DNA of 64,000 nucleotides from Yuukianura sp. NJ FZ-2021. Lineage: Eukaryota. This document shows positions 15,230 through 17,345 of this stretch, piece by piece. The translations under genes and the position numbers were made by a program. Under the pieces are notes generated by a model that had not been told where the DNA came from, searched no databases, and saw nothing but the letters and a program-made list of their open reading frames with translations. The DNA lies in the NCBI GenBank assembly GCA_046563655.1, contig CM102283.1, positions 3,472,001 through 3,536,000 on the forward strand, given 5' to 3'. The stretch's first letter is position 1; every line of letters starts with the position of its first letter.

Positions 15230-17345
15230 ATGAAGTAAGCTCATCAAAAACTGTTTTCAGACAACCTTTTTTTTGTTTCCTTTTTAAAACTTACTTGGTT
15301 TTTAAAAACATTTTTAGGGGTAGCGTCATTTTGTGGATTGGGCTCGTGGTCTATGTGAGGATAATAGTGAGTGTCAAGATCAACTACACGGTACACCAAA
15401 TTCAAATTAAAGTTAAAGTAAATAAAAAATTAAGTTTCCTTGAGTGTGCAATTGTTTTGTAACTTTAGGCGGCTGCTTTAGAATTTGGTAGGAAGCCTTG
15501 TAAGAGTGACTTGGACTGTAGAATCCCATTCGATGAACATCGTCTGGTTGGTCGTTGTCACCGTGCACGTGGTAAAGGCAATGACTATTGCATGAAAGGA
15601 GGCATAGTGAGCTATAATTAAGTTAAACTAACTTTTGTAAATTAAAAACTGTAACTACGTAATTGCTTATTTACAGCATCCAGACTGTAAAGAAATAAGA
15701 CATTGTGAGACAAGGTATCCAAATTGTAAGGCAAGCGACAACTTAGTTCAGACCTGTTACCTTAAGCAGAAGCTTTGTTACTGCGAGGAGCTCAAGGTAA
15801 CCAAACTGAATATTCTCCAATTTTATTAATAATTATAAAATAATTTAAGAATAAAACAGATAAATAGTATAAAAGCAATTAAACAAAAATCACCGGTTAT
15901 AAACTGGCAGGTACAAAAGTAACAAAAGATGGCGCTGCGTATCGTCACCGGTACAACGTAAGAAACGTTACAAAATAAAAATTTGACCTGTGACCTGGAA
16001 GGAGGTCACCAAGGGTCACGCTACGTAAAGTATTTGCTTGTCTCAATGACATGAATAACTGAAGTTACATGCAAGTACAAAAAATAATAAAAAGTAGAAA
16101 GTAGTTATATAGGACTAAATGGATCTGCATCCGGATTTCATTTCTAAAAATCCGGGTAAATACGAAATCCGGATTTTGAGAAACGGTACGGATTTAAGAG
16201 CGCTAAAAGTAAGTAGCGCATCCAGAACCGTTGACGCACATGGTATAGTATAGTATACTTTAATTTGGTGTTGATTTTTTTTGTTCACAAGTGCCGCGCT
16301 GATACGGATTGCTCAAATTACACGTGTCATGTCACCGAAAGTAAGCTAGATTCTGTTACGTTTTAGGTTACTTAAGTACTTTAGTTAAACTTAGGCGCAG
16401 AAACATAAATGATGTAACTCTTAAATTCATAAGCTTTATGAACATTAAAACATTTTGGCAGACGGAGTACTTTTGAAACCGCGCTGCTTAACTTCTGGTG
16501 TTGCTGGCAAGGAGTGCTTCTGTGCAAAGGTTGAGGATGAGATGAATGTAAGTCGACTCACTACATAACCCCAATGAATTATTACATGGTCACGATTACA
16601 TATTACATAGTCTCAACTACATAATACATAACTACAATTGCATAGCACTTATTCTTCGTTACATAATACATAACCACAAATACATATCCTAGTCCAAATT
16701 ACACATTACACAGTCTCGATTTAAACAACACAAGATCTGTTACATTATATACAACAGATTTGGATAAAACAAAATTACAACACTAATACTAATAATATAA
16801 CATTCATTTTGAATAACATTCATTTTGTAGTGTTCTAGCACTAAAGTATGCCAGAAGCTAAGTTGTCCCCAACCGCTAATCAAAGGTTGTATCTCTGGGA
16901 AATGTCGATGTCTTAAACAGGTATTACTTACGCTTTTAAGTTATTTTTAGCTAATGATTAGACATGCTAAAATATTTAGTTCCCATGCCTGTAATGTTAA
17001 GAAAATCAATATTTTGAGCATTTTTATTACTCAATATTTATTGATTTTCCCATGCCCGTAATTTTAATTAGGTAAATATTTTGAGGTTTTTGATGAAAAA
17101 TATTTAATATTTAAATATTTCACGGGTTTTTAGTAAATATTTTTGGCATGTCTACTAATGATAATGTTAATCAATGTTAGTTAATGGTTTCGTAATTGTT
17201 ACATTGCTTTTAATAACTTGTAGCCTAACATTTCAATTTTTGTTAGTGTGAGACAGTAGCGGAGTGCCAACAGGATATTGAGAATAAGGAAGGAACGACT
17301 ACTTGCAAGGAAATAGAAACAACCAAATACTGTATCGTTTCGTAA
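15230..17345 (+). CDS. Secreted multi-module cysteine-rich protein (207 aa, 26 Cys), defensin/toxin/NCR-like modules, 8 coding exons
   Basis: Exons 15230-15234, 15318-15354, 15469-15606, 15677-15796, 16292-16340, 16462-16547, 16831-16920, 17247-17345, all GT-AG and in frame: MKGSVILWIGLVVYAAALEFGRKPCKSDLDCRIPFDEHRLVGRCHRARGKGNDYCMKGGI HPDCKEIRHCETRYPNCKASDNLVQTCYLKQKLCYCEELK CRADTDCSNYTCHVTENGVLLKPRCLTSGVAGKECFCAKVEDEMN CSSTKVCQKLSCPQPLIKGCISGKCRCLKQ CETVAECQQDIENKEGTTTCKEIETTKYCIVS*. Confidence 0.88.
16959..17154. mobile_element. hAT-type MITE in the last intron of the Cys-rich gene
   Basis: TIRs TAGACATGCTAAAATATTTA / TAAATATTTTTGGCATGTCTA with a perfect 8-bp TSD CTAATGAT (16951-16958 and 17155-17162). 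Confidence 0.9.

Follow-up and report, generated by a model that had tools for sequence, protein, structure and literature searches.

A probable eight-exon gene in Yuukianura sp. for a predicted secreted chain of five cysteine-rich modules, one of them resembling the legume peptide NCR13

What kind of protein, if any, is encoded by a series of very short cysteine-rich open segments that lie between positions 15,230 and 17,345 of a 64,000-nucleotide stretch of the genome of Yuukianura sp. NJ FZ-2021 (GenBank assembly GCA_046563655.1, contig CM102283.1, positions 3,472,001 to 3,536,000 of the forward strand)? The whole of this 64-kb stretch is referred to here as the window. An earlier reading, made from the letters alone (the sequence-only reading), had proposed that the segments form a hidden eight-exon gene for a secreted protein of five modules, with a spacing of cysteines (Cys) like that of defensins, toxins or the legume peptides called nodule-specific and cysteine-rich (NCR). 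What we observed at this locus is its sequence anatomy, its coding statistics, an absence of detected relatives and a similarity of one module, M4, to the chickpea peptide NCR13. We consider the gene very probably real and protein-coding, as judged from its sequence. The fuller proposal is that this real gene yields an intact secreted "rosary" of five NCR- or defensin-like mini-domains with a role in host defence or microbe handling, and to this we give an even chance.

Sequence reading combined with a scripted location of the exon boundaries reproduced the proposed model exactly, in its eight exon segments, in the GT..AG boundaries of its seven introns and in its spacing of Cys. The segments lie on the plus strand and, joined across introns of 83, 114, 70, 495, 121, 283 and 326 nt (introns 1-7), give a coding sequence of 624 nt including the TAA stop; the spliced frame comprises 207 amino acids, 26 of which are Cys. 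The coding part of exon 1 (15230..15234) consists of the ATG and two further nucleotides, with an A at position -3 and the donor GTAAGC, and this 5-nt "exon" is merely the coding portion of an exon that the 5' untranslated region would share. The hydrophobic core of the putative signal peptide is encoded by exon 2 (15318..15354, 37 nt; acceptor TTTTAG, donor GTGAGG), and exon 3 (15469..15606, 138 nt) encodes the end of the signal peptide, an RK pair and then the first module, M1. M2 is found in exon 4 (15677..15796, 120 nt), the two halves of M3 in exon 5 (16292..16340, 49 nt; donor GTAAGC, phase 1) and exon 6 (16462..16547, 86 nt), the NCR13-like M4 in exon 7 (16831..16920, 90 nt), and M5 in the coding part of exon 8 (17247..17345, 99 nt including the TAA at 17343-17345). 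One complete module apiece is therefore present in exons 3, 4, 7 and 8, in phase 0, with M3 divided in phase 1 over exons 5 and 6, and the exact start of exons 5, 7 and 8 is the first Cys codon of a module. On the same strand, a TATA-like ATAAAAA (15124..15130) about 100 nt 5' of the start codon is a possible core promoter, and an AATAAA hexamer resembling a polyadenylation signal (17413..17418) follows 68 nt 3' of the stop. A possible short isoform of M1 and M2 can also be read at this locus: were the exon 4 donor GTAACC left unused, the frame would continue for 10 codons to a TAA (15797-15829).

Is this assembly of short segments a gene? Cys density, clustering of the Cys pattern, frame-specific codon usage and the contrast in guanine plus cytosine (GC) content between exons and introns together make it very probable that it is. 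Against a six-frame Cys background of 2.8% in the window, 26 Cys in 207 codons has a binomial P of 2.7e-10. The pattern C-x5-C-x(4-12)-C-x(4-12)-C matches eight times in the six frames of the 64 kb, and half of these matches (4/8) are the single-exon modules of the gene, on one strand and within 1.85 kb. Codon log-odds were trained on 1132 codons from neighbouring coding exons, with Cys codons left out. By this measure the spliced coding sequence scored +0.18 bits per codon in the proposed frame, and the training exons themselves, scored leave-one-out, gave 0.01 to 0.30; the other five frames ranged from -0.07 to -0.43, the introns scored -0.70, and when 2000 chunks of 621 nt were drawn at random from the window, only 0.2% reached the value of the coding sequence. 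The GC content is 44.8% in the exons versus 29% in the introns. An earlier spliced-chain score penalised any model with seven introns and gave no discrimination, and the Cys-pattern and codon tests were used instead.

These measurements also bear on whether the locus might be non-functional, i.e., a decayed pseudogene or a set of Cys-rich open segments chained by chance. The failure to find relatives, the 5-nt first coding exon and weak splice sites in two introns would fit such an origin, as would the direct repeats of about 600 bp on either side of the locus, which suggest a rearranged or mobile segment. However, the frame runs unbroken through 207 codons and eight exons, the Cys count of every module is even, and none of the start context, the signal peptide, the stop or the AATAAA is missing. 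Taken with the Cys density, the clear restriction of the coding signal to one frame and the difference in GC between exons and introns, these features make a non-functional locus appear quite improbable to us.

What would the gene encode? The predicted chain opens with a charged start, a hydrophobic core of 15 residues (residues 3-17, mean Kyte-Doolittle 2.05) and three small residues before the likely cleavage point; judged by eye, this N-terminus fits the signal peptide that had been proposed. The predicted mature chain has about 190 residues, a mass of about 21.4 kDa and an isoelectric point of about 8.2. The spliced frame yields the same Cys gaps as the sequence-only reading, and with them the symmetric arrangement of 4-6-6-6-4 Cys, always an even number, in five modules that all open with C-x5-C. 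M1 (C-5-C-12-C-10-C) has a net charge of +4 and opens with C-x2-D-x-D-C, an opening also present in M3 (C-5-C-4-C-12-C-9-C-1-C, net charge -2). M2 (C-5-C-6-C-9-C-6-C-1-C) carries a net charge of +1, M4 (C-5-C-4-C-7-C-4-C-1-C) is free of acidic residues and reaches +6, and M5 (C-5-C-12-C-8-C) has a net charge of -4. The linkers between flanking Cys measure 8, 4, 8 and 3 residues in order along the chain. When the non-Cys residues were shuffled, none of the 10 module pairs exceeded z = 2 in likeness beyond the Cys frame, the best pair reaching z = 1.86.

Such a string of modules could be a polyprotein precursor whose linkers are cut to release five separate Cys-rich peptides of 3-5 kDa, antimicrobial, signalling or toxin-like and differing in charge, as the sequence-only reading had entertained. 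Each module is self-contained, with an even number of Cys and its own exon, and the module charges diverge strongly (+6 to -4), as they do among separate NCR peptides; an RK pair at residues 22-23, past the signal peptide and ahead of M1, could serve as a propeptide site. This is, however, the sole dibasic pair: none is found in any of the four inter-module linkers, no RxxR occurs among the linker residues displayed, and the linkers span merely 3-8 residues between Cys. Because the linkers are so short and free of dibasic processing sites, the chain is probably secreted intact, and we regard cleavage into separate peptides as unlikely.

We then asked what the modules themselves resemble. Compared with 177,635 PDB sequences, M4 matched NCR13 of chickpea (7th8/8ulm) with a score of 22.3 bits (E = 9.3e-4), in an alignment of 29 residues without gaps that places all six Cys in register and contains six other identities. 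The four other module queries returned nothing below E = 1 and no NCR peptide, with no match at all for M5, which indicates that this search is not promiscuous for Cys-rich queries. In Pfam, the Nodulin_late profile (PF07127) matched M4 with 16.7 bits (E = 0.0097), below its gathering cut-off of 30.4 bits, over profile positions 30-54 of 54, which represent the mature-peptide part. The unspliced M4 frame scored 15.8 bits against the same profile, and the other four exon peptides gave no match to it at E <= 10.

The predicted structure of M4 points in the same direction. A single-sequence AlphaFold2 model of M4 reached a predicted local distance difference test score (pLDDT) of 87.7, with a helix at residues 4-9 and strands at 16-21 and 24-29. 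NCR13 was the best structural match of this model; in a Foldseek search of the model against the PDB, eight rows came within E <= 10 and not one reached E <= 0.001. NCR13 was released in 2023, and the AlphaFold2 weights should be older than that, in which case the M4 model would be independent of the entry. The published description of NCR13 places its helix at residues 5/6-10 and its two strands at 20-24 and at 27-31, and reports for the compact isomer (NCR13_PFV1) the disulfides C4-C23, C10-C28 and C15-C30, that is, a 1-4, 2-5, 3-6 pairing (PMC11637438). Once the alignment's offset of 4 residues is allowed for, the M4 model and NCR13 coincide in the position of these elements.

Does this make the protein an NCR? 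M4 is identical to NCR13 in its Cys spacing (C-5-C-4-C-7-C-4-C-1-C) and is likewise cationic, and the C-x2-D-x-D-C opening of NCR13, a start that the sequence-only reading had likened to NCR peptides, is also found on M1 and M3. NCR peptides as a group have the C-x5-C opening in common with all five modules and the C-x4-C-x-C end in common with M4, and they occur in 4- and 6-Cys forms, cationic to anionic, a mixture also seen among the five modules. NCR genes are genes of nodulating legumes and each encodes one signal peptide and one short mature peptide. The gene described here, in contrast, lies in an animal genome and strings five modules in one chain over eight exons; its remaining modules differ in loop lengths and have no NCR match. 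The proposed resemblance to NCR peptides thus stands for M4, through the NCR13 match and the shared spacing, but not for the other modules, and even for M4 the Pfam cut-off was missed. In its Cys frame, and apparently in its predicted fold, M4 resembles an NCR-type scaffold, yet the protein is no member of the NCR family, and the likeness to legume NCRs is most likely a convergence on a simple disulfide scaffold. Convergence has been argued even among the Cys-rich nodule peptides of legumes (bioRxiv 10.1101/2025.09.09.675119). That this animal lineage possesses genuine NCR-type modules, independently evolved or acquired from plants, and has strung five of them in one secreted microbe-controlling protein as a multivalent counterpart of legume symbiont control, seems to us a long shot.

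To what extent does the protein have relatives of its own? In Pfam, 0/5 exon peptides reached a cut-off, and at E <= 10 only Nodulin_late on M4 and Ornatin on M1 were returned, the latter at a non-significant E of 0.12; three unspliced frames added no further family. EB, TIL, WAP, EGF, Kazal and antistasin all failed to match at E <= 10 in these five exon peptides and three unspliced frames, M3 being scanned as two halves. In the large collections, the queries were single exons and a four-module profile; M3, M4 and M5 were never used alone (M4, at 30 amino acids, falls under the 40-residue minimum of the word-index search), and multi-module relatives have possibly been missed. A word-index search with M1 among proteins of 82-2000 amino acids gave five candidates, none of them at E <= 10, and the four-module profile gave 46 candidates among longer proteins, none at E <= 1. 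An exhaustive phmmer search with M2 through 1,835,955,588 representative proteins returned one match, which we rejected as spurious, since it is a tandem repeat in translation and nearly devoid of Cys. Scans of metagenome DNA in which the open frames surrounding exon 4 and exon 3 served as queries produced 259 and 598 pattern matches, respectively, none of which was confirmed. Within the 64-kb window there is no second copy of the gene and no further Cys-rich module, and Rfam has 0 matches in it. A partial literature search likewise found no multi-module NCR-like animal protein.

In the collections searched, the five-module protein is an orphan at the sequence level, and the suggestion that it is possibly undescribed holds, with no match to EB, TIL or WAP in Pfam at E <= 10. 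Among invertebrates, it is common for a genome to encode secreted orphan proteins rich in Cys. A caspase encoded elsewhere in the window has nearest relatives only 61-77% identical in a collection of 5.8 billion clusters, from which we conclude that the source animal is poorly sampled and, as the best match there is only 77% identical, that the protein collection does not include this genome.

The modules had further been likened to cysteine-stabilised alpha-beta (CS-alpha-beta) defensins and to scorpion short K+-channel toxins. Members of these groups (Toxin_2, Toxin_5, Defensin_2) do agree with M4 in having six Cys and C-x4-C-x-C at the end, and their order of elements, a helix and then a sheet of two strands, is the one predicted for M4. 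The canonical CS-alpha-beta helix, however, carries Cys2-x3-Cys3, whereas the helix of NCR13 and of the M4 model lies between Cys1 and Cys2. All three six-Cys modules contain CxC and lack CxxxC, their Cys2-Cys3 gaps being 6, 4 and 4 in M2, M3 and M4, and no Pfam defensin or toxin family matched any of the five exon peptides at E <= 10. Membership in these families was therefore not borne out.

A toxin or venom component with modules acting on ion channels, in the manner of scorpion short toxins, was considered on the same evidence. The nearest language-model neighbours of M2 and M4 include the scorpion short-toxin clusters Toxin_5 and Toxin_2, with a score of 0.84, as well as cyclotide, but these neighbours are a lead only, since roughly one in three shuffled sequences also obtains a score below 0.9. 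The C-x4-C-x-C end of M4 contains GKCRC, and one Foldseek row for M4 is scyllatoxin (1scy, E = 8.2). Set against these hints are the absence of CxxxC from every module, the lack of a Pfam toxin family at E <= 10 and the absence of anything pointing to a venomous source animal, and we consider a toxin very unlikely.

Tandem small Cys-rich modules of invertebrates are often inhibitors or matrix proteins. The protein might accordingly be a multi-headed protease inhibitor, or some other extracellular protein with a binding or structural task, for example as a component of matrix, cuticle, eggshell or an adhesive, and without any role in microbe handling. The unspliced frame of the first half of M3 matches a carboxypeptidase A inhibitor chain (3fju_B, E = 2.9) with the C-x2-D-x-D-C start in common, and the mixed charges of the modules would suit a binding protein equally well as an antimicrobial. 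The 3fju_B match is, however, not significant, and Pfam contributed no inhibitor or matrix family at E <= 10 in the five exon peptides and three unspliced frames. We rate an inhibitor or structural protein as rather unlikely.

The closest architectural analogue of an intact chain is found in the X-tox proteins. X-tox proteins such as Spod-11-tox and Gall-6-tox carry imperfect six-Cys defensin-like motifs in tandem in one secreted chain, which is not processed and whose spacers lack conserved cleavage sites; their motif consensus is C-x4-C-x3-C-x7-G-x-C-x3-K/R-C-x-C, and they are presented as restricted to Lepidoptera (PMC2728511). The predicted protein resembles this "defensin rosary" in having a signal peptide, several six-Cys motifs per chain and spacers without dibasic cleavage sites, a likeness of architecture only. 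The X-tox consensus, a true CS-alpha-beta motif with CxxxC, differs from every module here; the corresponding gap is x4 or x6 in the six-Cys modules, and 4-Cys modules are present here too; no sequence relationship to X-tox was detected in any search. BCR peptides of aphids, from an animal symbiotic organ, offer a second comparison, by description only: they are animal secreted Cys-rich peptides, proposed as functional analogues of NCRs, and are described as separate peptides rather than as a five-module chain (PMC6594739).

How might such a protein work? Splicing, secretion, disulfide pairing, lack of processing and function are all deduced from sequence, and the following course is proposed on that basis. 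The seven GT-AG introns would be spliced out to yield a precursor of 207 residues, whose N-terminal signal peptide would direct it into the endoplasmic reticulum and then be cleaved. Five independent mini-domains, each encoded by a single exon or a pair of exons, would then form, locked by 13 disulfides (2+3+3+3+2) in all. M4, at least, is predicted to adopt the short helix and beta-hairpin fold of six-Cys NCRs and may have the NCR13 pairing 1-4, 2-5, 3-6. The chain would leave the cell uncut, as a string of beads, and the cationic M4, perhaps also M1, could bind anionic microbial or other surfaces, while the differently charged modules might add specificities or modulate binding. We regard a microbe-directed role, in host defence or microbe handling, as the likeliest of the functions considered, with somewhat less than an even chance.

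Several points weigh against an intact microbe-handling rosary. M3 and M5 are anionic, which is a poor fit to a simple cationic antimicrobial, and X-tox, the closest architectural analogue, is reported to be without antimicrobial activity (PMC2728511). The predicted structures cover M2 and M4, and the AlphaFold2 model of M2 is of low confidence (pLDDT 63.8); it has the helix-then-hairpin order, and its structure search was uninformative. No orthologue was found in the searches above and no paralogue in the 64-kb window. At the level of the gene, the splice sites of intron 4 (donor GTAACC, acceptor AAG) and the donor of intron 7 (GTATTA) are weak, and the coding share of the first exon is only 5 nt.

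The surroundings of the gene are those of a window with a GC content of about 36%. Pfam identifies Na_Ca_ex exons at 2457-3211 on the plus strand, which motif reading suggests belong to an NCKX-type exchanger, and a Peptidase_C14 exon at 5339-5953 on the minus strand (E = 1.4e-23), the caspase mentioned above; among PDB entries it matches caspase-9 and CED-3 best, which marks the source as an animal. Between 7722 and 11951 on the minus strand lie the exons of a long coiled-coil gene, whose matches to CFAP58 are sub-threshold. On either side of the five-module gene itself stands one copy of a direct repeat of about 600 bp (14190-14793 and 17544-18153); the two are 92-94% identical, lie about 3.36 kb apart and have no further copy in the window. 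The pair could stem from a dispersed element, could be ends like those of long terminal repeats, or could act as substrates for gene duplication or deletion.

Intron 4 contains four nuclear-receptor-type half-sites (RGGTCA) within 35 bp (15984..16018), speculatively a possible intronic enhancer; such half-sites are dense there and again at 36700-36737. Four perfect inverted-repeat-1 palindromes, RGGTCANTGACCY, occur at 18356-18368, 18386-18398, 19099-19111 and 36725-36737, with 0 found in 100 shuffles, and three of the four lie within 2 kb downstream of the gene. In form, these palindromes and RGGTCA clusters correspond to response elements for nuclear receptors of the ecdysone or FXR type, but they may instead be part of a repeat family. 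A 39-bp minisatellite (3.4-4 copies, 88-95% matches) is present at 19304-19459. Further along, a 14.5-kb satellite array (41412-55956) is made up of 82.6 copies of a 176-bp unit with 98% matches and a 44-bp sub-periodicity, and accounts for the flat composition at 42-56 kb. Strong positive GC skew (0.21-0.38) extends over several kb at 34000-40000 and 58000-64000, and short purine-rich tandem repeats are found, e.g., at 39115-39291. A bacterial promoter and terminator scan of the window showed no enrichment, and such a scan is irrelevant to a eukaryote.

The locus illustrates that Cys-rich genes with short exons are detectable by sequence statistics alone, through the density of Cys, the difference in GC between exons and introns and a codon usage specific to one frame. 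If expressed, this gene would add a family of secreted disulfide-rich proteins for which a search of billions of predicted proteins detected no relatives. It would also supply a second, independent instance of the "defensin rosary", an architecture described until now for Lepidoptera, and would include an animal module whose sequence frame and predicted fold coincide with those of NCR13, a potent antifungal peptide of legumes. The protein would then provide a concrete test case for how plants and animals converge on mini-disulfide scaffolds, with five natural scaffold variants of widely different charges in a single chain.

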